Of a stretch of DNA of 64,000 nt, positions 1,320 to 39,404 are shown piece by piece. Every line of letters starts with the position of its first letter. Position 1 is the first letter of the stretch. The notes beneath the pieces are model-generated. The model saw only the letters and a list, made by a program, of their open reading frames with translations. It was not told the DNA's origin and made no database searches. A program made the translations under genes and the position numbers. This DNA is from Candidatus Doudnabacteria bacterium (GTDB taxonomy: Bacteria; Patescibacteriota; Dojkabacteria; J137; JAEUSD01). The DNA is taken from positions 757 through 64,756 of the forward strand of contig JAEUSD010000003.1 of assembly GCA_016788825.1 (NCBI GenBank), written 5' to 3'.

Positions 1320-2441
1320 TTATTCTTGGCTACTATTCGGATTGTCTACAATCTCTATCGAGTTAGTAAAGTTGTCTCCCGAAGCTGTGATTTTGAGAAT
1401 ATCCTTGTCTACTTTTACCAGCTCTCGAGTCGCATTATTGTAGGCGTTTACAGTCACATTGAGACTCTTCCCCAGCTTCTGATACACGTCGCTATATGAG
1501 TAGAGGTGTTTTTGAAGTTTCTCTACCTGTTTCTGGATTTCTTTGGTTGACTCTTCGATTCTGAGTGCTCGCAATCCTTGGAGAACTGTTTGTAAGTAAG
1601 CAAAGAAGGTCGTTGGTGAAACCATGATTACACGCCGCTTGAAAGCGTATTCGATCAATCCCTCTTGATTGACGTCGATAACTCCGACCTTTTGTACGAG
1701 TAAGTCATAGTACAGCCCGTCCGCAGGGACAAACATAAAGGCGAAATCCAAGGTGCCTTCCTGCGGACGGATGTACTTGGAAGTTTCATCTATTCTTTTC
1801 ATTAGGTCCTGTTTAAACTGTTTTTCCCAACGCTGACGGTCTTCCCCTGATTCTGCTGTGGATAAACGGTTGTAGTTCTCTAAGCTAAATTTGGCATCCA
1901 CAGGAATATTCCCGTCGCGGGTGATTATTAGGGCGTCGACAATCTCACCGTTTTCAAACTTGAATTGAAGTTTGTAGGCGTCTGGTGGTAGTACGTTTCT
2001 CAATACTGTCTCTAGATAATATTCTCCGAGTACACCTCGCTGTTTGGGGTTGCGTAGAATGTTTTCTAGGCTTTGCAGCTGAGTAGCAAACTGTTGAATA
2101 TTTTTTCCGGTTTCTGAGACTTTGGTAATTTCCTGAGTAATCAGTTTCACCTTCTCTGTGTACTCCATAAGACTTTTTTGAGAAAGGGCAAACTGCTGCT
2201 GGATAGATTGATTTGATTTGGCTAGTTGATTGTTAATAGTCTTATCCTGGTCGCGTAAGCGTTCATTTAGCTCATAAATTAGTTTATCTAGGCGGTCATT
2301 TTGTGCCTGAGTAAGCTGAGCTATTTGGCTCTGCAAGAGGGTCATACTTTCCCCGCCTGTTCCGGAGGAACGCATGAATCTAAATAACACTGCCGCAACG
2401 ACCACAATAAGTATTACGAGTAAGATTGCGATAAGATCCAT
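1320..2441 (-). CDS. rmuC: DNA recombination protein RmuC-like
   Basis: 373 aa with an N-terminal TM helix, a long coiled-coil (QSQIAQLTQAQNDRLDKL...) and a conserved RmuC C-terminal nuclease-like region (DALIITRDG...VDAKF, FAFMFVPADGLYYDLL). Confidence 0.75.
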   Translation of the reverse strand: MDLIAILLVILIVVVAAVLFRFMRSSGTGGESMTLLQSQIAQLTQAQNDRLDKLIYELNERLRDQDKTINNQLAKSNQSIQQQFALSQKSLMEYTEKVKLITQEITKVSETGKNIQQFATQLQSLENILRNPKQRGVLGEYYLETVLRNVLPPDAYKLQFKFENGEIVDALIITRDGNIPVDAKFSLENYNRLSTAESGEDRQRWEKQFKQDLMKRIDETSKYIRPQEGTLDFAFMFVPADGLYYDLLVQKVGVIDVNQEGLIEYAFKRRVIMVSPTTFFAYLQTVLQGLRALRIEESTKEIQKQVEKLQKHLYSYSDVYQKLGKSLNVTVNAYNNATRELVKVDKDILKITASGDNFTNSIEIVDNPNSSQE

Positions 2442-2504
2442 AAGTTGTTTCTATGATGCCATAAGTCTACCATCCACAAGCCTTTTCTGCTAACCTATAC
2501 AGTA

Positions 2505-2918: not shown

Positions 2919-4946
2919 TTCTTTTGCCTTTCTCCCTGGTCGCGATTCTTTCCCATTCCCCGATCCTAGCTGTGAAAGCTCAGACAGCTTTGTCATTTCT
3001 GGTTCGCTTGGCAGTTCTGTAAGAACAATGTATTCCCATCCAAGCTCGATCAATGGTTGAACTTTGTCTAGTTCTAGTTTTGGTAGCCGGAGTATCGCCT
3101 TAAAGCCTTTTTTGTGAGCGGAGTGGAAAAGTGCTTGGATAGCTGGCAGTACTGTGTTTATGTTTTCGGTAACGGAAAGGCTTCCCAATAAGTTACGAGC
3201 GTATTTCTCCAAGTGCAAAACTATCCCGTCCACTATGTCGTTGTCTAGTTCTGCCAATTGAAATCCAAACGCGGGCCAAGATACCTCAGCGTACAATTGA
3301 GTCGATTTTGTCCTGCGAAAGCCTTGTGTGGAGAGGGCTTTCTTGAGGTTCGTCAATTCGGTAGTTGTGCGTAGCCCCGGAAGTACTAAGTCGACATTCC
3401 GTACACCGTATACACTGTATGCGCGTTTGATACTTAGGTACTCAGCCAACAAGGCTTCGGGGTATTTATTGAACCTGGCAGCGCCATCGGGCTGGTTCAG
3501 ATCTTCGAAAGCATGCAAGTCGCTAAAACAATAAAATAGCGGGTTATCGCCGGCGGATTTTCCGATGATAGATAGGTCTAAGGCCACTGACTCCACAAAA
3601 TCACTTAGTTTTGACTTGTCTTTGGCCACGGCCTCGGGAATTGTTTCTTTTTTGGAGATCAGTTGGGTGGCATCGATGTAGGCAGCGGAAAATCCGCCTA
3701 CACTAGCCAAAAGCTCATTGTCCATGGCTGAGACCTCAAGTACTAGTTTGGTTGGTGATTCTGGGCTGGCGATTTCTCCCGTTTCTACCATCTCGTTCAC
3801 CTCATTAGCCAGCTTGGAAATGTTAACTTTGGGTGTCCGCAATTTTAGTTCCGGTTTGGTACTCTTTTTCTCTGCGGGAACTTCCTGCGGTTCTTCTGCA
3901 ACGACTGGTTCTGGAGTGATTACAACATTAGGGACCTTAAGGTCTGTGTGTGTAGATAAGCTGTGTAAAGGGGAGTACTGGTGGACATCAGTTATCTGTA
4001 CTTTCCCCAATTCATAAGCCCAATTCACCTCCACATCAAAACCTAATTTTTTCTTCAGCTTGGCGATTATTTGGGCCAGTTGAACTACGAACGTATCATC
4101 CAGTTTTTGACGCCGACGCCATTCGGGAGAAATGTTAACCTCGAGGTAGGGGTTTTGCTCATCAGCTTTGGCTTTACGAACGTACATCTTCTCTTGAGGG
4201 GCGACATTCTTTTCCACTAGCTTGATATCGTTGGCATCTATTTTGTAAACGTCGCTATAAGCACTCAGCGTGTTGCTAATCATTAGTCCGAGCACTGCTT
4301 CGATAGTTATGAAATCCACTTCCCCGGATATGGGGTCGAGTGAATAAGCCTTCCCAGATGATTCTGCTTGGGGGCTGCGCATTACTATCACTGCCATGGA
4401 CAACCCTCCTTGGTAATTCTGTTTTGCTCTATGGATTAGGGCATCAGGACTAAATAGGCTAGTCCAAATGCGTTTAACTGCATACATCAGATGAGCCTCG
4501 CCCTTGATATGAGATATTTCTCTGTCGATTTCTGTCCCAGGAATTAAACTTTCCTCGAGGACATGGGATGGCTGCAGGCGAACATATTTGTCGCTGATGC
4601 CCGAGAGGCTTTTGTATGCTTGGATTATTGGTGTCAGAACCGTATTGGGGAACGTGGCTTCCAAAATCGACTTCTCAATCTCGTGAGACACATTACGAAC
4701 ATCTTCCGGTTTGGTATTTACACTTACTTTCTGCAAAAGTGTACTGATCTTGTCCAATAAACCACTGGCAATGATAAAGTCATCAAATGCAGCGGAGCTG
4801 ATTGAATAATAAGGGGGAAGAGGCACTTGCTGCAGGTCATAAGCGGCCAGTTCCAACGCTAACCCTCCCACTTGTTCGAGTGAGGAATTTCCGGCTTCAG
4901 ATGAGCTGACAACGTAATGCTTCTGTTTACCTAACAAATTGGGCAA
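2910..4946 (-). CDS. PEP-utilizing enzyme family protein (PPDK_N-type ATP-grasp N-domain plus C-terminal PEP-utilizer-like barrel; no obvious phosphohistidine swivel domain)
   Basis: 678 aa. The N-terminal region resembles the pyruvate phosphate dikinase / PEP synthase nucleotide-binding domain (VGG.ALELA, MAVIVMRSPQAESSGKAYSLDP). The C-terminal part resembles a PEP-utilizer TIM-barrel (LVLPGLRTTTELTNLKKAL). Confidence 0.45.
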   Translation of the reverse strand: MPNLLGKQKHYVVSSSEAGNSSLEQVGGLALELAAYDLQQVPLPPYYSISSAAFDDFIIASGLLDKISTLLQKVSVNTKPEDVRNVSHEIEKSILEATFPNTVLTPIIQAYKSLSGISDKYVRLQPSHVLEESLIPGTEIDREISHIKGEAHLMYAVKRIWTSLFSPDALIHRAKQNYQGGLSMAVIVMRSPQAESSGKAYSLDPISGEVDFITIEAVLGLMISNTLSAYSDVYKIDANDIKLVEKNVAPQEKMYVRKAKADEQNPYLEVNISPEWRRRQKLDDTFVVQLAQIIAKLKKKLGFDVEVNWAYELGKVQITDVHQYSPLHSLSTHTDLKVPNVVITPEPVVAEEPQEVPAEKKSTKPELKLRTPKVNISKLANEVNEMVETGEIASPESPTKLVLEVSAMDNELLASVGGFSAAYIDATQLISKKETIPEAVAKDKSKLSDFVESVALDLSIIGKSAGDNPLFYCFSDLHAFEDLNQPDGAARFNKYPEALLAEYLSIKRAYSVYGVRNVDLVLPGLRTTTELTNLKKALSTQGFRRTKSTQLYAEVSWPAFGFQLAELDNDIVDGIVLHLEKYARNLLGSLSVTENINTVLPAIQALFHSAHKKGFKAILRLPKLELDKVQPLIELGWEYIVLTELPSEPEMTKLSELSQLGSGNGKESRPGRKAKELF

Positions 4947-5182: not shown

Positions 5183-7018
5183 CTAGATCTCTCGTTTTTT
5201 CAAAAGATCCAGGCTATCCGTAGGGATTTTCCACTTGGCGGCAATGGCTGCTTGATCTGGTCCATTTGCATTGCCGCCAGTGGGTCGATCAGGGCCAGTC
5301 AACTGTTTGCGTGGTCTGTCGATCTGTTTCTGCTTGGGACGGCTTCCTTGTGGGTTTGTGAAACTGATCACGGATAAGATCATCGGGTTACGCCCAATCT
5401 CTTTTGCCACAAAATAGCCGATCTTGTCTTCCAACTCCTTGCGCAGTTCTGCTACCTCATTTGTTTCCTTGAGTTTCTTATTTAGTGTGTTCTCGGCAAG
5501 CTTGCGAATCTCCCCCAACAAATCCTTACTGGTTGGGATGTAAACGAAACCGCGGGTGACAACAAATGGCTCATTCATCAAGGCTTTTTTCTCTGCGTTT
5601 ACATTGATGTCGATCACGATTACACCATGGTTTCCGAGCTGTTGCCTTTCTTGTAACACGCTTTCACCTACGTCACCGACACCAGTTCCAGAAACCAAGA
5701 CAGGGTTCGACTTGATACGTGCACCCCTGGTGAAGCCTCCTGCAGTCGAACCCTCGATAATCTCTCCGCGCTTGGCGATGATGATATTCTCGGCTTTTAC
5801 ACCTACAGATACGGCGGTTTTACCGTGTTCACGCAAGAAATATTGATAACCATGCACAGGCATGAAGTACTTTGGTTTCGTCAGGTTCAACATGATCTTC
5901 TGATCTTCTTGATAACCGTGTCCTGAAGTGAAGAAATCTACGCCTTCAGACTGGCTTACGCTGGCTCCGGTGGCTGAGATAACCTCAATCAGTTGCTGCA
6001 CAGCCATATTGTTACCAGGGATCGTTCCAGCAGAGATGATCACGCTGTCGCCCTGTTTGATCTTTACGTTTTTGTATTCACCAAGTGCCATACGGTAAAG
6101 TGCAGCGTTGGATTCTCCTTGTGCACCAGTGGTCAAAATGATCAAACGATCATCGTGGTAACGGTTGATGCTTTGGATAGGGATCAAAAGTCCTTGTTTG
6201 GGCTTGATATAACCAATCTCCTGAGCAATCCGCAGTGTTTGCTGCATACTGTATCCGGCGATGGCTACCTTCTTCTGCATCCGCTCTGCGATCTGCATGA
6301 TCTGGTACAACCGCCCTACAAGTCCGGAGAAGCTAGCTACGAAGACACGACCCTTGGCGCGCTCAATAATCATTTCAAGGCCGCGCGCCACATCGTTTTC
6401 CGATAGTGGGTAACCCTTTTTGGTCGCATTGGTTGAGTCAGACAATAGTACGTCGACACCTTTTTCACCAATGCGGGCGATCTTGGCGTAATCCGCTACT
6501 GGTTCGTTTACTGGAGAGTTATCAAATTTAAAGTCTCCGGTGTGAACGATCTTGGACGCTGGAGTGGTAAGGTAAATCCCCAGACATTGAGGAATACTGT
6601 GATTTACACGGAAGAACTCAGCATTGAAGCTGCCTAACTGTAAATTTGTATTCTCATCAATATACTCCAGCTTAACTTTGTCAGTTAGGCCGGCTTCCTC
6701 CATATCCGCGCGGATCATTTCGATTGTAAATTTACTACCGTAAACGGTCGGAAACCCGATCCGCGGCAGCACATATTTCAATGCGCCGATGTGGTCTAAG
6801 TGACCGTGAGTGATCAAAATTCCTTTGATCATGGACTGGTTTCTCACCAGATAGTCGAAATTGGGGATGAGTAAATCTACTCCGTACATGTTGGCATCAG
6901 GGAATCCTGCGCCCACATCTACAACGACAATTTCGTTTTTGTATTGGTAAACTGTACAGTTGATACCAATCTCTTCAACTCCGCCTAGCGGAATTATTTT
7001 TAAGTTTTGTGTTTCCAT
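5183..7018 (-). CDS. rnj: Ribonuclease J (metallo-beta-lactamase / beta-CASP RNase)
   Basis: 611 aa. N-terminus is KIIPLGGVEEIGINCTVY. Carries the metallo-beta-lactamase motif ILITHGHLDHIGAL and beta-CASP motifs. Has a basic C-terminal extension. Confidence 0.9.
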   Translation of the reverse strand: METQNLKIIPLGGVEEIGINCTVYQYKNEIVVVDVGAGFPDANMYGVDLLIPNFDYLVRNQSMIKGILITHGHLDHIGALKYVLPRIGFPTVYGSKFTIEMIRADMEEAGLTDKVKLEYIDENTNLQLGSFNAEFFRVNHSIPQCLGIYLTTPASKIVHTGDFKFDNSPVNEPVADYAKIARIGEKGVDVLLSDSTNATKKGYPLSENDVARGLEMIIERAKGRVFVASFSGLVGRLYQIMQIAERMQKKVAIAGYSMQQTLRIAQEIGYIKPKQGLLIPIQSINRYHDDRLIILTTGAQGESNAALYRMALGEYKNVKIKQGDSVIISAGTIPGNNMAVQQLIEVISATGASVSQSEGVDFFTSGHGYQEDQKIMLNLTKPKYFMPVHGYQYFLREHGKTAVSVGVKAENIIIAKRGEIIEGSTAGGFTRGARIKSNPVLVSGTGVGDVGESVLQERQQLGNHGVIVIDINVNAEKKALMNEPFVVTRGFVYIPTSKDLLGEIRKLAENTLNKKLKETNEVAELRKELEDKIGYFVAKEIGRNPMILSVISFTNPQGSRPKQKQIDRPRKQLTGPDRPTGGNANGPDQAAIAAKWKIPTDSLDLLKKREI

Positions 7019-7504: not shown

Positions 7505-8025
7505 GGCTGTAGAGATTCGATGTAGTCGTCTAGGTGCTTAGCTAAATCTTCAACTTTACCTGTATTGTCTATCTCGAAGGCTGCCGTTGGCCTTTCAAAA
7601 ACACTCTTTATCTTTAGGTAGTCTTCAAATGTATCCGGTGCTCCCTCTTTTTCGTGTCTGTTGGTGATACGTTCTTCCGCAATCTTTTCGTCAAGTTCGA
7701 GCAAAAGTATCTGATACTTGATTCCATTCTCAATTAATAGTTGTGTAATAAAATCTCTTTGTGACTTAAAGCGGAAACTGCCTTCAAAAATAATATGGCT
7801 TTCTGGAGCTACCTTTGAAAGATAATATGCCAGCGGCCTCATGCTGCGGTAAATCTCTGCTAGCTGTTCAGGGGTGAAATCTCCGGTTTCTGTTCTCTCT
7901 CCTTGCGGAAACAGTAAGCCGTGCAATATGTCTGTATTTATTACTTCGGCGTGTAACCTCTCTGCAAGTAATTTGGTCGCTGTTGATTTTCCACTTCCTG
8001 GCAAGCCCATTATTATGTGTAACAT
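7501..8025 (-). CDS. P-loop NTPase / predicted kinase (AAA_33-like)
   Basis: 174 aa beginning MLHIIMGLPGSGKST (Walker A). Small zeta-toxin/gluconokinase-like fold. Confidence 0.6.
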   Translation of the reverse strand: MLHIIMGLPGSGKSTATKLLAERLHAEVINTDILHGLLFPQGERTETGDFTPEQLAEIYRSMRPLAYYLSKVAPESHIIFEGSFRFKSQRDFITQLLIENGIKYQILLLELDEKIAEERITNRHEKEGAPDTFEDYLKIKSVFERPTAAFEIDNTGKVEDLAKHLDDYIESLQP

Positions 8026-15711: not shown

Positions 15712-16886
15712 ATGGCGAAGAAAAATATTTTTGAAGGGATTCAACCAGATGCTGTGCCGCGCTGTCCGTATTTCGGAATTTGCGGAGGTTGCTCGGCACA
15801 AGACATCAGCTACGAGCGCCAGCTCGTAGCTAAGCTCAGCTTTGTGAAGAAGCAGCTAGGTGAGCTGGTTGAGAACCTCGACCTTCAGATCACTGGCGCT
15901 CCTGATCCTTACGAATATAGAACTCGGATGGATTACGTGACTGTGGAGGACCCGATCAAGGAGCCCAACATTCGCATGGGTTTACGTAAGAAAGGGCATT
16001 TTAACCACGTGGTAGATTTGCACGAATGCCATTTGATCAAGTTAGAAACTTTCCAAAAGATACGCCAAATCTTCGAATCTATTTCAGAGCAAAAGTATGA
16101 TCTTTATCGTCGCACACGGGCTGGTTGCGTTACTTGGTTGTGCGGACGCACGGTGATAGCCACATGTTGTCTGTGGTGACTGCGAGCCACGAGCACTCGG
16201 AATCAATGGCGGAGATCGCCAAACAGGCTTTAGAACTGGGTTTTACCTCGGTTTATTGGTTACTTAACGATACAGTGACTGACGACTCTAAAGGTGAGGT
16301 TGTCCAGTACTGGGGAGAGCAATATTTGAAAGTTAAAGTGGGAGACAAATTGAGTTTGAATATTGGCCCAAATAATTTTTGTCAGAATAACATTGAGGTG
16401 TTTGAGGAAATTTTGAGCTATGTTGACGAACACTTAGCAAGAAATGATTTATTTACCGGCAAACTTTATGATCTCTACGCTGGTGTAGGGGCTATTGGTT
16501 TGTATTTTGCTCAGAAATTTGAACAAGTTTATGCATGTGAGCTGGATGCGCAGAGTGTGGAGTTGGCGAGGTTGAATGCAGTTGAAAATGGAATCAGCAA
16601 TTACGAAATTGTGGCCGCTGACGCGACCACCCTCGGCGCGCTAGCAACCCCTGACGTAGTGATTGTCGACCCCCCGCGCGCCGGACTTCTCCCCCGCGGA
16701 GTAGAAGAAGTCCTCTCCCTGGGTGCCAAAAGTCTAGTATATATCTCTTGCAATCCAACCACCCAGGCACAAGACTTGGCGGCCCTGTCCTCACAATACA
16801 AGATCGTTTCGGCCAGGGCCTTCGACATGTTCCCCCAAACCCCGCACGTGGAAAATGTAGTGATACTGGAGCCAATTAACGACTAA
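15712..16886 (+). pseudogene. rlmD: 23S rRNA (uracil-5)-methyltransferase RlmD/RumA-like, interrupted by a frameshift near 16117-16124
   Basis: The N-terminal part (15712..16179, frame 1) carries the Fe-S Cys cluster CPYFGICGGC. The methyltransferase part (16125..16886, frame 3) carries LYDLYAGVGAIGL, VIVDPPRAG and ISCNPTT. The homologous sequence continues across frames at ..YDLYRRT / GWLRYLVVRT near a ggg run. Confidence 0.6.
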
Positions 16887-18277: not shown

Positions 18278-18361
18278 GCCCGGGTGGTGGAATGGTATAC
18301 ACGGCGGACTTAAAATCCGCTGCTCTTAACAAGCTTGTGGGTTCGAGTCCCACCCCGGGTA
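18278..18361 (+). tRNA. tRNA-Leu (anticodon TAA), type II with long variable arm; CCA not encoded
   Basis: Acceptor gcccggg/cccgggt. Anticodon stem gcgga/tccgc with loop cttaaaa. A 17-nt variable arm. T-arm gtggg-ttcgagt-cccac. Confidence 0.85.
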
Positions 18362-19516: not shown

Positions 19517-19577
19517 CGTAGCTTATTAAAAATTTATCATACATATATTATCATTTTAGTCTTTGGTAGAATAATGT

Positions 19578-19979: not shown

Positions 19980-21045
19980 ACTCGTCGTTGGGGTAGAGGG
20001 GCACTGTGAGTTCTTTTGTAGCGAGTTTAGGCAAGCCGAGGAAACTGATTTTGATTTCTGTGGCTTCTATGGCGGAGATTTGGGCGTTTTCCACTTTGAG
20101 CTGTAGCATGGTTCCAGTCGATCCTTCGGGGACAAAATAGAAGCCACAAACCGCAAAATTGCCTAGCGAATAGAATATTTGCTTTCCGTTGTAAACCTCC
20201 GACTCTTGGCGTACATGGGGCCCGCTGCCAACAACCAGATCTGCCCCATTATCAATAAACAAGCGGGCCCATGACCTTTGGCGACTGTTCACAACCGTTG
20301 TGTTCTCTTCACCCCAATGAGGGTAGACGATTACGTAGTCTGCAGATTCACGTGCGGCTCGAAGGCTAGCGATGATCCTTGCTTGATCAAATGTTGCGGT
20401 CCCAGCGCTAGAACTTGTGGCGGCGGTAAACCAATTCTCAATGTCGTTCATTGAAATAAGGGCGATCTTGATACCTTCAAATTCAATGTACCTTGGCTGT
20501 AGCGCCTCGTCCATATTTTTACCGCCGCCAAAGTGGACTATTCCTGCGTCATCTAGCAGTTGCATCTGCTCAACCAACGCCGTGCTACCAAAGTCCATAG
20601 AATGATTATTTGCGAGCGACACGGCGTCCACCCCCACCTCTGACATCCACTGAAGTGCTTCTAGCGGAGCCTTGAATGTGTAGGATTTCCCAGGCTGAGG
20701 TGCACCTGTATTGGGAGCAGAAAGGTTTGTCTCCAAGTTACCAATTAGAAGATCACATGCTTCCAGATCCTCCATCACATAGGTGTAGGGTTTCAGACCT
20801 TTGTGTAAGTCTTGGGTATAAGTTCCTAAGTTATTGTCCCCAGTGATACAAATTTTCTTAGGCTCGGGTGGTAATGGAGGCTCAGTCGAAGTGGTGCTTT
20901 CGGTTTGAGAAGCTTGATCAGTTGGCGGTGTCGTAGTGGTTTCCGGTGTTCCGGTGGCTGAAGTTTGACTCAGTCCCCACAGGGCAATAATTAAGCAAAA
21001 CACAGTAAAGACAGCGTAGAAAAGAACCTTTTTCGAAATTTGCAT
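19963..21045 (-). CDS. capA: CapA/PgsA-family metallophosphatase (poly-gamma-glutamate synthesis-like), secreted with a Thr/Pro-rich linker
   Basis: 360 aa with a signal peptide and a TPETTTTPPTDQASQTESTTSTEPPLPPEP linker. CapA motifs are present (DLLIGNLE, SLANNHSMDFG, VYPHWGEE, SLGNF). Confidence 0.75.
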   Translation of the reverse strand: MQISKKVLFYAVFTVFCLIIALWGLSQTSATGTPETTTTPPTDQASQTESTTSTEPPLPPEPKKICITGDNNLGTYTQDLHKGLKPYTYVMEDLEACDLLIGNLETNLSAPNTGAPQPGKSYTFKAPLEALQWMSEVGVDAVSLANNHSMDFGSTALVEQMQLLDDAGIVHFGGGKNMDEALQPRYIEFEGIKIALISMNDIENWFTAATSSSAGTATFDQARIIASLRAARESADYVIVYPHWGEENTTVVNSRQRSWARLFIDNGADLVVGSGPHVRQESEVYNGKQIFYSLGNFAVCGFYFVPEGSTGTMLQLKVENAQISAIEATEIKISFLGLPKLATKELTVPLYPNDEFKAAP

Positions 21046-21120
21046 ATATCAATTTAACAAAACTGCGAATTAAATGCATGCTACAATTTCTGCGCGACTA
21101 AAGCGCCCCGCGCCGCTACA

Positions 21121-21192
21121 GGTCACGTAGCCAAGCAGTAAGGCAGCGGTCTGCAAAACCGCTATACGCGAGTGCAATTCTCGCCGTGACCT
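21121..21192 (+). tRNA. Atypical tRNA-Cys(GCA)-like cloverleaf embedded in an 18-19 bp leader/trailer hairpin
   Basis: Acceptor ggtcacg/cgtgacc. D-arm gcc-aagcagtaa-ggc (no GG). Anticodon stem gcggt/accgc with loop ctGCAaa. T-arm gcgag-tgcaatt-ctcgc (G at position 55). Flanks cgcgccgctaca / tgtagcctggcgcg pair with each other. A TACAAT box lies at 21082-21087 and a ttttg tract follows the hairpin. Confidence 0.4.
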
Positions 21193-21295
21193 GTAGCCTG
21201 GCGCGGAGCTTTTGCTTCAAATCCTTTTTTTGTAGTTGAAACTTAACCCAAACTAGAATAATATAACGTAACATTTAAATTCTTATTTATCTAAG

Positions 21296-21880
21296 ATGAC
21301 AGATAAAACGATTAAGTTTATTAAGGAAACACGTGCTCGTTATTTGATCGGGGCTTTGGCCGCACTCGCAGCTTTGACATCTCTTTTGGAGTTAACAAGA
21401 GGCGCTAGCTTGATCTCAATTGTTGTAGGTTGGGTTGTCGGAATGGCAATTGCAATAGGAGCGTACTATCTTTCAGCTAAAATCTTTGTGATGGTTGTGA
21501 GTAGTGAGAAGGTTACTGGCTCAGAGTTCAACAGCTTCAAGGCATTCTTGACTTATGGGGTTGTAGGGCAAGCCTTGAGCGTTGTTACTGGGATTCTTAC
21601 AGCTGGTGTCGGTGCTGCATATGTTGTCGGAACAACTTATACAAGGGCTTCAGGCGCTGCTGCTTTGGGAGCTATCGGGGTATTCGGTGGGGTATTACTT
21701 TTGGCCTACCTAGGAATTTTGCTTTTCTTTGTAAGTGTGATTGCCAAGATCAATCAGGTTTCTTGGTTAAAGGGATGCTTAGGCTTGATTATTTCCACCA
21801 TTATAATCGCCGTGCTAGTTGCAATCCTAGGGTTTATCGGCATTAGCGGCTTGGTAGGAGTAGGATTCAGCGCATTCTAA
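21296..21880 (+). CDS. Gly/Ala/Val-rich integral membrane protein (possibly Yip1-like)
   Basis: 194 aa with about 5 TM helices and small-residue-rich helices. No catalytic motif. Confidence 0.4.
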   Translation: MTDKTIKFIKETRARYLIGALAALAALTSLLELTRGASLISIVVGWVVGMAIAIGAYYLSAKIFVMVVSSEKVTGSEFNSFKAFLTYGVVGQALSVVTGILTAGVGAAYVVGTTYTRASGAAALGAIGVFGGVLLLAYLGILLFFVSVIAKINQVSWLKGCLGLIISTIIIAVLVAILGFIGISGLVGVGFSAF

Positions 21881-24829: not shown

Positions 24830-24883
24830 TGGCTTGTTTTACCGCAATATTTTATCAGATTATGTTAGAATATTCGCACGATT

Positions 24884-24958
24884 CGGGGTGTAGTTCAGTT
24901 GGCTTAGAACGCTCGCTTTGGGAGCGAGAGGTCGTGAGTTCGAGTCTCGCCACCCCGA
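24884..24958 (+). tRNA. tRNA-Pro (anticodon TGG); CCA not encoded
   Basis: Acceptor cggggtg/caccccg. D-arm gttc-agttggctta-gaac. Anticodon stem ctcgc/gcgag with loop ttTGGga. T-arm gtgag-ttcgagt-ctcgc. Confidence 0.85.
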
Positions 24959-30852: not shown

Positions 30853-30880
30853 TTGGGTTTGGTGTGTCATCTGGTAGAAT
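30853..30880 (+). promoter_or_regulatory. Putative sigma70-type promoter with extended -10 for the cytochrome b5-like gene
   Basis: TTGGGT (-35), 16-nt spacer ending in TGg, TAGAAT (-10, 30875-30880). The ATG is at 30902. Confidence 0.35.
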
Positions 30881-39128: not shown

Positions 39129-39404
39129 TTACTTAGTGTGGAAAGGATCGTTCTGCAGGGGAGTAGGCAAAGACTTAGAAGACCTGGCTTCAAGATCCTG
39201 CTTCACCACCTCGTAGCTCTCGATATTTACCTCGGGAAGCGCGATTCCTGGCACAAAGTCGATACTGCGCTGAGACAAAAGTAGATTGAGAGTGTATATG
39301 CCCAAGTATGTGTTGGCTAACAACAAGGTAAGTGCCATAAACATCCCAATGATGTAAGTTCTATTCTCATTTAGTAGCTGCGCGGCGCGCGAATTTTGTT
39401 TCAT
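39129..39404 (-). CDS. Small membrane protein at the distal end of the pilus operon
   Basis: 91 aa with a single TM helix (YIIGMFMALTLLLANTYLGIYTL). Confidence 0.4.
   Translation of the reverse strand: MKQNSRAAQLLNENRTYIIGMFMALTLLLANTYLGIYTLNLLLSQRSIDFVPGIALPEVNIESYEVVKQDLEARSSKSLPTPLQNDPFHTK

Follow-up and report, generated by a model that had tools for sequence, protein, structure and literature searches.

A Patescibacterial tRNA-Cys gene with a predicted A18:G55 elbow and a leader/trailer stem of putative function

Positions 21121-21192 of a 64,000-nucleotide stretch of DNA assigned to Candidatus Doudnabacteria bacterium (assembly GCA_016788825.1, contig JAEUSD010000003.1, positions 757 to 64,756 of the forward strand; this whole stretch is referred to as the window) raise the question of whether a cloverleaf that lacks two near-universal nucleotides, and that lies at the tip of a long hairpin formed by its own flanks, is an ordinary decoding tRNA-Cys. 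The first-pass annotation of the element, which lies next to a gene for a CapA-family protein, had left open whether it is a tRNA-Cys precursor with a very unusual body or a tRNA-like regulatory or non-coding RNA. Combining gene prediction, covariation analyses and comparisons with related loci, we consider it probable that the element is a tRNA-Cys of the Candidate Phyla Radiation (CPR), likely transcribed as a unit of its own, in which the G18:U55 contact of the elbow is replaced by A18:G55 and the hairpin likely acts as a terminator and/or processing stem. What sets it apart is the combination of a lineage-wide A18:G55 elbow with a strain-specific leader/trailer stem of putative function.

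ARAGORN calls a tRNA-Cys(gca) at 21120-21193, the one tRNA-Cys that it finds in the window, and the Rfam family RF00005 matches 21121-21192 over model positions 1-71 of 71 with 63.1 bits (gathering score 29), a score like those of the ordinary tRNA-Leu(UAA) (59.3 bits) and tRNA-Pro(UGG) (65.8 bits) of the window. A permissive Rfam scan of 21000-21300 (E<=1) returned no family besides tRNA, and other RNA families were ruled out on this ground. In standard numbering the element reads GGUCACG UA GCC A AGCAGUA A GGC A GCGGU CUGCAAA ACCGC UAUAC GCGAG UGCAAUU CUCGC CGUGACC U, with an acceptor stem of 7 bp, a D stem of 3 bp closed by an A13.A22 mismatch, and anticodon and T stems of 5 bp each; every stem pair is intact. 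The anticodon loop CUGCAAA (21151-21157), with U33, the anticodon GCA at 21153-21155 and a purine at position 37, is invariant in the alignment of relatives, and the discriminator U73 (T at 21192) is the same in 37 of 37 related tRNA-Cys. U73 is an identity element for the cysteinyl-tRNA synthetase CysRS.

When the 37 diverse related tRNA-Cys are aligned, 99.8% of the stem cells pair and 16 of the 22 stem pairs show compensatory double changes; none of 500 shuffles reaches the same number and no slid register comes close. The tertiary pairs G19:C56 and G15:C48 are present in 37/37 and 36/37 of the sequences, respectively. The 72-nt cloverleaf with a Cys anticodon that had been read at 21121-21192 is thus upheld, and the covariation check that had been proposed came out in its favor. 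Because U73, the GCA anticodon, the complete cloverleaf and the strong compensatory covariation throughout its stems together indicate an ordinary decoding tRNA, the suggestion of a tRNA-like regulatory RNA finds no support. Judged by its sequence, the element is a true tRNA-Cys(GCA) gene. The genome around it is taken to be one of the Patescibacteria (CPR) close to Dojkabacteria: the best named relatives of the adjacent CapA-family protein are Candidatus Dojkabacteria (42-44% identity), and the window encodes pyruvate:ferredoxin oxidoreductase, ADP-forming acetyl-CoA synthetase and PPDK, genes typical of CPR fermenters.

The tRNA shares with the tRNA-Cys(GCA) of Bacillus and Escherichia coli the GCA anticodon, U73, a 3-bp D stem that ends in the A13.A22 mismatch, a D-loop kept short by the absence of position 17, and a variable loop of 5 nt with G15:C48; its D arm GCCAAGCAGUAAGGC is one base away from GCCAAGCGGUAAGGC, which we take to be the Bacillus form. 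It differs from both in carrying A18 and G55, so that Psi55 cannot be made. The D-loop AGCAGUA aligns as A14 G15 C16 A18 G19 U20 A21, with A18 at 21137 and G19 at 21138, and the T-loop UGCAAUU (21173-21179) has G55 at 21174 and C56 at 21175. Eight of the ten positions in the conserved tertiary set U8, A14, G18, G19, G53, U54, U55, C56, A58 and C61 are as expected, the two changes being G18 to A and U55 to G. The D-loop without GG and the T-loop with G55 had therefore been read correctly, but the first-pass annotation went too far in having both elbow contacts altered: G19:C56 is kept, and the exchange of G18:U55 for A18:G55 is the single change.

How widespread this exchange is was addressed by two scans with complementary anchors, in which the taxonomy of the loci is taken from record titles and the counts refer to the matches listed. 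A genome scan with the pattern GCCAAGNAGTAAGGCN6CTGCAAA, anchored on A18 with position 55 left free, gave at least 120 loci, almost all of them from Patescibacteria (Saccharibacteria, Peribacteria, Peregrinibacteria, Paceibacterota, Minisyncoccia and other classes) and together representing more than 110 species-level genomes of small-genome bacteria with the A18/G55 type. A UGC T-loop with G55 is present in all but four of these matches. The exceptions are three from Firmicutes (L035, L042 and L047), which combine A18 with U55, unlike the tRNA in the window, and one from Anaerolineaceae with C55. Conversely, a metagenome scan with the pattern CTGCAAAN{12,13}GNGTGCRANNCNC, anchored on G55 with the D-loop left free, gave 80 tRNA-Cys, of which 79 carry AG at positions 18-19; in the last one, the GG that had raised a flag is located at 15-16, and by eye the loop reads G16 A18 G19. 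In the pooled samples, the combination of G55 and AG is present in 197 of 200 tRNA-Cys from CPR contigs, a proportion that is no measure of the share of this type among CPR genomes, as both samples were chosen on A18 or G55, which is a point against our reading. The body that had appeared very unusual is, by the same proportion, the usual one for the group.

The same coupling is seen in tRNAs that were not selected on positions 18 and 55. Of the 408 non-Cys tRNAs that neighbor these tRNA-Cys genes on their contigs, G55 occurs in 14, all of them with AG and none with GG, whereas GG is present in 390 of the 394 with U or C at position 55 (Fisher p = 9e-23). In a viral scan anchored on G55 tRNA-Cys, none of 71 co-located non-Cys phage tRNAs with G55 has GG. 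Moreover, the syntenic ortholog of the window tRNA-Cys in L001, where the CapA protein is 53% identical and the neighboring genes are the same (SSB, an exo/endo-phosphatase and a hypothetical gene), keeps both A18 and G55, while its acceptor and T stems differ from those of the window by compensatory changes. In about a third of the loci, tRNA-Leu(UAA) comes next after the A18/G55 tRNA-Cys, an order like that of a housekeeping tRNA cluster. Taken together, the pattern of change across relatives argues that the A18/G55 swap is a lineage trait and not a defect, and that the window tRNA-Cys is under ordinary purifying selection with the 18/55 contact exchanged as a pair. The variant elbow is not a general trait of the tRNAs of this genome, and neither is the leader/trailer helix described below: the elbows of tRNA-Leu (18278) and tRNA-Pro (24884) are of the normal GG/UUC type, and both tRNAs lack such a helix.

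Elbows of this kind were also observed in several tRNA arrays. On the phage contig L330 (IMG/VR) a UGC T-loop and a GG-less D-loop occur in nearly every tRNA listed of a large array, so that such tRNAs are presumably used in translation; the phage arrays L253, L306, L312, L335 and L338 have the variant elbow in many tRNAs. A cyanobacterial cluster in a metagenome-assembled genome of Alkalinema sp. (L066 6964-7196, MUGG01000063.1) contains at least Glu, Cys and Met tRNAs with UGCAA T-loops and GG-less D-loops; the acceptor ends are odd (that of Cys begins AUCCAGG), and the cluster may be an acquired tRNA array. The metagenome contig L157 carries Val and Phe tRNAs with the G55 elbow, and at 6075-6389 and 7675-7810 of this contig ARAGORN calls Glu, Arg and Leu tRNAs with short introns of 47-81 nt.

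G18 and Psi55 are generally presented as universal in tRNA and anchor its elbow, which RNase P, the ribosome and many enzymes recognize. In this elbow, residue 18 is inserted between positions 4 and 5 of the T-loop and forms a pair with one hydrogen bond with the "universally conserved" Psi55; the flat face that G19:C56 exposes serves as a contact for RNase P, the L1 stalk and T-boxes (PMC4810234). In yeast SUP4, single mutations of G18-U55 abolish function (PMC4117946). In T-loops outside tRNA, position 2 is almost always a G that is contacted by an adenosine donated by a receptor, and in the FMN and cobalamin riboswitches this adenosine is inserted between positions 4 and 5 (bioRxiv 10.1101/2022.12.26.521914). 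The likeness has a limit in the source of the adenosine, which comes from a distant receptor in the riboswitches and would be D-loop residue 18 in the window tRNA, with presumably equal geometry. T-loops of RNase P RNA and rRNA make the same G-adenosine contact. We suggest that the window tRNA-Cys would fold as a normal cloverleaf and L-shape in which G18:Psi55 is replaced pairwise by A18:G55, a general T-loop solution transplanted into tRNA that would keep the stack. Because this arrangement matches that of T-loops outside tRNA, the swap would be structurally conservative and, with G19:C56 unchanged, the outer flat face on which RNase P and the ribosome stack would be unchanged as well. What the covariation of positions 18 and 55 demonstrates is the pairwise exchange; the geometry of A18:G55 and its consequences for modification enzymes are our extrapolation.

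Psi55 is not universal on this evidence: a major bacterial radiation very widely carries a tRNA-Cys with A18:G55 instead, and at least one phage tRNA array uses the A18:G55-type replacement almost throughout. A G at position 55 removes the substrate for Psi55 formation, and the swap would define a predicted class of tRNAs in which TruB cannot modify position 55 and the Gm18 methyltransferase cannot modify position 18. It would also constitute a natural double-mutant case for the architecture of the elbow, and the A18/G55 pair could serve as a practical marker to separate real variant tRNAs from pseudogenes in metagenomes. In the limited literature searched we found no description of an A18:G55 elbow or of an unusual CPR tRNA-Cys.

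The second unusual trait of the locus is the pairing of its flanks. The arms 21100-21127 and 21185-21212 form an inverted repeat of 28 nt with 82% complementarity, and both the minimum free energy (MFE) and the centroid fold of 21095-21215 continue the acceptor stem into a longer helix that is capped by the cloverleaf. From the acceptor outwards, this helix consists of 6 bp (GCUACA/UGUAGC, in which U73 pairs with A-1), a 2-nt bulge CU on the 3' strand, seven G/C pairs (CCGCGCC/GGCGCGG), a 3x1 internal loop and 5 bp (AAAGC/GCUUU), i.e. 13 + 5 bp in the predicted fold. The fold energy is -61.7 kcal/mol compared with -41.5 +/- 3.8 for shuffled sequences (z = -5.4), and none of 200 shuffles is as good; the extension of the acceptor by paired flanks with a 2-nt bulge thus stands as first described. 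In strain L127 (CapA 96% identical), which is too close to inform on conservation of the helix, the 260-nt spacer has two differences, and one of them, A21207G, lengthens the helix by putting a pair in place of a C.A mismatch (fold -73.3 kcal/mol, z = -6.3). The contigs L004 and L005 stop before the position of the tRNA, and the complete Dojkabacteria genome L006 has no tRNA-Cys near its capA homolog. We conclude that the helix is real and confined to the strain group. Across CPR tRNA genes, strong leader/trailer duplexes are uncommon but enriched: duplexes of <= -25 kcal/mol occur in 5 of 114 CPR tRNA-Cys and 2 of 217 other tRNAs, and in 0.23% of mismatched leader/trailer pairings. Two other explanations of the flanks were discarded. 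The leader is not a repeated element, as the window contains one other sequence close to it (39373-39390, 3 mismatches), which falls at the beginning of an ORF and is coincidental; and the helix does not have the geometry of an archaeal bulge-helix-bulge, with two 3-nt bulges and a 4-bp helix.

Transcription of this structure could be accounted for by putative signals close to its two ends. The TACAAT hexamer that had been noted upstream is present and, preceded by TG, forms an extended -10 box, and the U-tract noted after the trailer corresponds to two T-runs (Table 1). Sites of the form TGNTANAAT (TGnTAnAAT) occur eight times in 64 kb, with 12 expected by chance; four of the eight are located <=35 nt upstream of starts, i.e. 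those of a NUDIX ORF (19578), the tRNA-Cys, a SpoU ORF (24829, minus strand) and tRNA-Pro (24884), while random placement would bring an estimated ~2% of sites that close. A consensus promoter scan gave no -35 match for the tRNA-Cys box. With a start predicted near 21094, the leader would be ~27 nt long. We suggest that the tRNA-Cys is most likely transcribed alone from the extended -10 promoter as a ~120-nt monocistronic precursor with paired ends, in line with the small transcription unit proposed earlier, and that the stem, with its GC-rich foot between AAAG and UUUU, most likely terminates this unit. The stretch 21236-21264, with the promoter-like site of the downstream gene, is conserved with L001. 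Other TGNTANAAT boxes directly upstream of starts are found at 19564-19572, 24849-24857 (minus strand), 24863-24871 and 30872-30880. The first of these ends 6 nt before the ATG of the NUDIX ORF, which suggests a leaderless mRNA, and back-to-back boxes serve the SpoU-family ORF and tRNA-Pro, the latter with TGtTAGAAT.

Maturation would have to deal with both ends. The paired-end precursor would need to be opened or cut, e.g. by RNase III, before the 5' end could be matured by RNase P. CCA is not encoded at the 3' end of the tRNA-Cys, where the following bases are GUA, so that 3' maturation would call for an endonuclease such as RNase Z and for the CCA-adding enzyme. None of the three tRNA genes of the window (18278-18361, 21121-21192 and 24884-24958) encodes CCA, and the organism must therefore depend on endonucleolytic 3' maturation and a CCA-adding enzyme; RNase J is encoded at 5183-7018 (minus strand). 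The stem resembles two known types of structure. As in intrinsic terminators, a GC-rich foot (CCGCGCC/GGCGCGG) lies between an upstream A-run and a downstream U-run, but the stem encloses a 72-nt tRNA and six further pairs in place of a loop of 3-8 nt. As in leader/trailer processing stems, such as the rRNA stems cut by RNase III and those of some pre-tRNAs, the duplex formed by the flanks is long and runs coaxially with the terminal stem; here, however, it surrounds a single tRNA and is not conserved beyond the strain group, and a role of RNase III is conjectural.

Several points weigh against the reading of the hairpin as a terminator and processing stem. A terminator with a 98-nt tRNA "loop" is unconventional and is not called by the terminator scan: at the stem foot GGCGCGG(A)GC followed by UUUU (21210-21213), the scan lists a weak 5-bp hairpin at 21205-21218, because its rule allows loops of 3-8 nt. 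The sole sign of selection on the helix is a single substitution in the near-identical strain L127. The syntenic ortholog L001 has no helix and has an ordinary hairpin downstream of its tRNA instead. L099, whose tRNA is the closest outside the species (68 of 72 positions identical), likewise has no helix and has a TATAAT box, a U-rich trailer and a downstream tRNA-Leu(UAA). Finally, full pairing of the leader from -1 onwards should make cleavage by RNase P difficult.

In other CPR loci, it is around tRNA-Cys genes nested in another tRNA-Cys gene that the leader/trailer helices are strongest. Most of 93 ARAGORN intron calls are chimeras of neighboring tRNAs and were filtered out, but with overlapping introns allowed ARAGORN finds three nested tRNA-Cys cases (Table 1), with a complete outer gene in each (L038, L092 and L232) and an inner tRNA of the A18/G55 type. 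The inserts are placed between G34 and C35 of the outer anticodon and start and end with an inverted repeat, so that the long stem carrying the inner tRNA is closed by G34:C35; folding predicts a cloverleaf within a cloverleaf (z = -5.3 and -9.1) with a symmetric 2x3 internal loop at the junction. The insert family of L038 is also present in L154 and L091/L240, where the outer gene has suffered damage (G53A in one, a missing 3' half in the other); its occurrence in two outer tRNA-Cys types (L038/L091 and L154) suggests independent insertions. L092 and L031 keep the leader/trailer helix with the same geometry and different sequences. In L031 and L060 (~5502-5575, complement) a conventional tRNA-Cys is broken at CTG| by a hairpin-flanked A18/G55 tRNA-Cys, and the broken outer gene is a conventional G18G19 tRNA-Cys in L038, L091/L240, L031 and L060, with U55 visible where the outer 3' half survives (L038 and L031, the latter with a UUC T-loop).

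A group I intron was rejected for these inserts on size (117-157 nt, 72 nt of it tRNA), and a bulge-helix-bulge on the geometry of the junction. With the disrupted tRNA genes of archaea (PMC4390854, PMC4090602) the nested loci, and not the uninterrupted locus in the window, share an interruption of the anticodon loop by a helix-bounded insert; they differ in being bacterial, in having a complete tRNA of the same specificity inserted at 34|35 and in the symmetric internal loop at the junction. From their sequences, the nested loci look like inverted-repeat-flanked tRNA genes that insert into tRNA genes of the same specificity. We found no description of nested tRNA loci or of tRNA introns in CPR in the limited literature searched. 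Together with the hairpin in the window, they raise questions about tRNA termination, maturation and the movement of tRNA genes between genomes in the CPR.

Table 1. Positions of features at the window tRNA-Cys locus and of nested tRNA-Cys genes in other CPR loci
Feature	Position	Strand	Detail	Basis
Extended -10 box TGcTACAAT	21079..21087	+	TACAAT at 21082-21087, preceded by TG	Read from sequence; putative function
Leader strand	21100..21120	+	AAAGC 21100-21104, unpaired GCC 21105-21107, CCGCGCC 21108-21114, GCUACA 21115-21120	MFE and centroid fold, inverted repeat
tRNA-Cys(GCA)	21121..21192	+	72 nt including discriminator U73 (21192)	ARAGORN, Rfam RF00005, cloverleaf covariation
Trailer strand	21192..21212	+	UGUAGC 21192-21197, bulge CU 21198-21199, GGCGCGG 21200-21206, unpaired A 21207, GCUUU 21208-21212	
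U-rich tail	21210..21231	+	UUUU 21210-21213 at stem foot; UUUUUUU 21225-21231	Sequence; putative terminator role of the long stem
Promoter-like site TTGAAA-17-TAATAT	21236..21264	+	For downstream gene at 21296; marks end of tRNA unit	Promoter scan
L038 (Terrybacteria), outer tRNA-Cys	2263-2451		Insert 117 nt; inner tRNA 2317-2389	
L092, outer tRNA-Cys	128-359	complement	Insert 157 nt; inner tRNA 192-264	
L232, outer tRNA-Cys	1861-2086	complement	Insert 154 nt; inner tRNA 1926-2001	

Nesting is not restricted to tRNA-Cys. It is clear for Ile(UAU), found within Ile(UAU) in L016 (4108-4183) and L079 (61-135, complement), with AT at both junctions; Ala(GGC) apparently lies on the tip of a 14-bp stem within an Ala-like outer tRNA in L022 (4636-4706, complement), and Leu(UAA) apparently within a Leu-like outer gene in L171 (1266-1350, complement). 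Partial cases were observed for Ser(UGA) in L227 (4589-4674, complement), where the outer 5' half alone remains, and for Gly in L060. L031 (Buchananbacteria, 1779-2170) has, besides an insert of the L092 family, a further insert that carries 14-bp inverted repeats and lies in the outer anticodon stem, and two additional 3' halves, each preceded by TCGGGAC. In L215, the tRNA-Cys starting at 4580 is followed from ~4652 by tandem truncated tRNA-Cys copies without the 5' acceptor strand, in which the hairpin GGTGCCGATTCGGCACC takes the place of the 5' anticodon-stem strand.

These loci raise the alternative that the hairpin in the window is no selected RNA element and instead consists of the inverted repeats flanking a tRNA-Cys cassette that is, or once was, mobile, either free-standing or with a decayed host tRNA gene, an explanation that we regard as rather unlikely. 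The architecture is alike, with a complete tRNA at the tip of a stem formed by the two flanks, and the nested families show that such a stem can keep its geometry while its sequence differs, that one insert family occurs in more than one outer type and that the gene disrupted is a conventional one. Just outside the helix in the window, CTG (21090-21092) and CAAA (21218-21221) correspond to the two halves of a CUGCAAA loop; this observation is post hoc, however, and the adjoining bases do not pair as an anticodon stem. In L001, a 12-nt copy CGTGACCTGTAG of the 3' end of the window tRNA and its trailer lies at 2918-2929, upstream of a different tRNA-Cys (shuffle p ~0.004), which suggests replacement, tandem duplication or turnover of tRNA-Cys at the locus. 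The same 12-nt copy is located at 46-57 in both L002 and L003, in the leader of an orthologous but different tRNA-Cys. Against a cassette, no outer tRNA is called in the window when ARAGORN is run with overlapping introns, and the flanks resemble the tRNA's own halves at background level (scores of 15 and 12 vs medians of 12 and 14), with about 11 matches in 33 positions by eye between the flanks and a tRNA-Cys 5' half. Moreover, the sequence of the helix is unrelated to both nested families and unrepeated in the window apart from the near match inside an ORF, no recombinase or transposase is linked to the nested inserts, and the predicted promoter occupies the place expected for an outer 5' half.

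An extended form of this explanation, which we consider unlikely, is that the window copy belongs to an undescribed class of selfish or mobile CPR tRNA cassettes of 120-160 nt that consist of an inverted-repeat-flanked A18/G55 tRNA-Cys. Such a cassette would enter a resident tRNA-Cys gene between G34 and C35 and offset the damage by supplying its own copy; across the radiation, cassettes would be replacing conventional G18G19/U55 tRNA-Cys genes, with similar nesting for Ile and apparently for Ala and Leu, and the window copy would be free-standing or long-settled, with its own promoter and with the repeat used as a terminator.

Alternatively, the element could be a non-proteinogenic or regulatory tRNA that functions off the ribosome while a conventional tRNA-Cys elsewhere decodes. 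A precedent exists in Staphylococcus aureus and Staphylococcus epidermidis, in whose non-proteogenic tRNA-Gly genes TGC/TGT replaces TTC in the T-loop and pseudouridine is absent (PMC7826273); it is the sole documented G55 precedent found in the limited literature searched. The window tRNA shares with it G55 (UGC at 21173-21175) and, as a consequence, the loss of the T-loop pseudouridine. The staphylococcal tRNA-Gly, however, also loses G19, with dihydrouridine at this position, coexists with proteinogenic isoacceptors and serves peptidoglycan synthesis, whereas in the window tRNA-Cys G19:C56 is invariant, G55 is coupled to A18 and the molecule behaves as the standard tRNA-Cys of its lineage. 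The distribution of the type over species-level genomes, its frequent place ahead of tRNA-Leu(UAA) as in a housekeeping cluster and the variant elbow in nearly every tRNA listed of the phage array L330 speak against a role off the ribosome as well, and in four lineages the conventional tRNA-Cys is broken and the A18/G55 copy is the only intact gene at the locus. We consider this explanation very improbable. Hardly credible is a decaying tRNA pseudogene with a chance inverted repeat in its flanks, to which the changes at the near-universal G18 and U55 and the missing helix in the 53%-identity ortholog L001 might seem to point, as the Rfam score of 63.1 bits, the intact stem pairs, the covariation of positions 18 and 55 across hundreds of sequences and the compensatory changes in all stems contradict a pseudogene, and the fold statistics (z = -5.4, 0/200 shuffles) contradict a chance repeat.

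One further observation concerns a gene of the window that codes for a potential uracil-5-methyltransferase. A TrmA/RlmD-like protein appears to be split into two overlapping ORFs at 15712-16179 and 16125-16886 (plus strand) of 155 and 253 aa, respectively, while its homolog in L001 is a single ORF of 414 aa; the split could reflect a frameshift, a sequencing error or a pseudogene.

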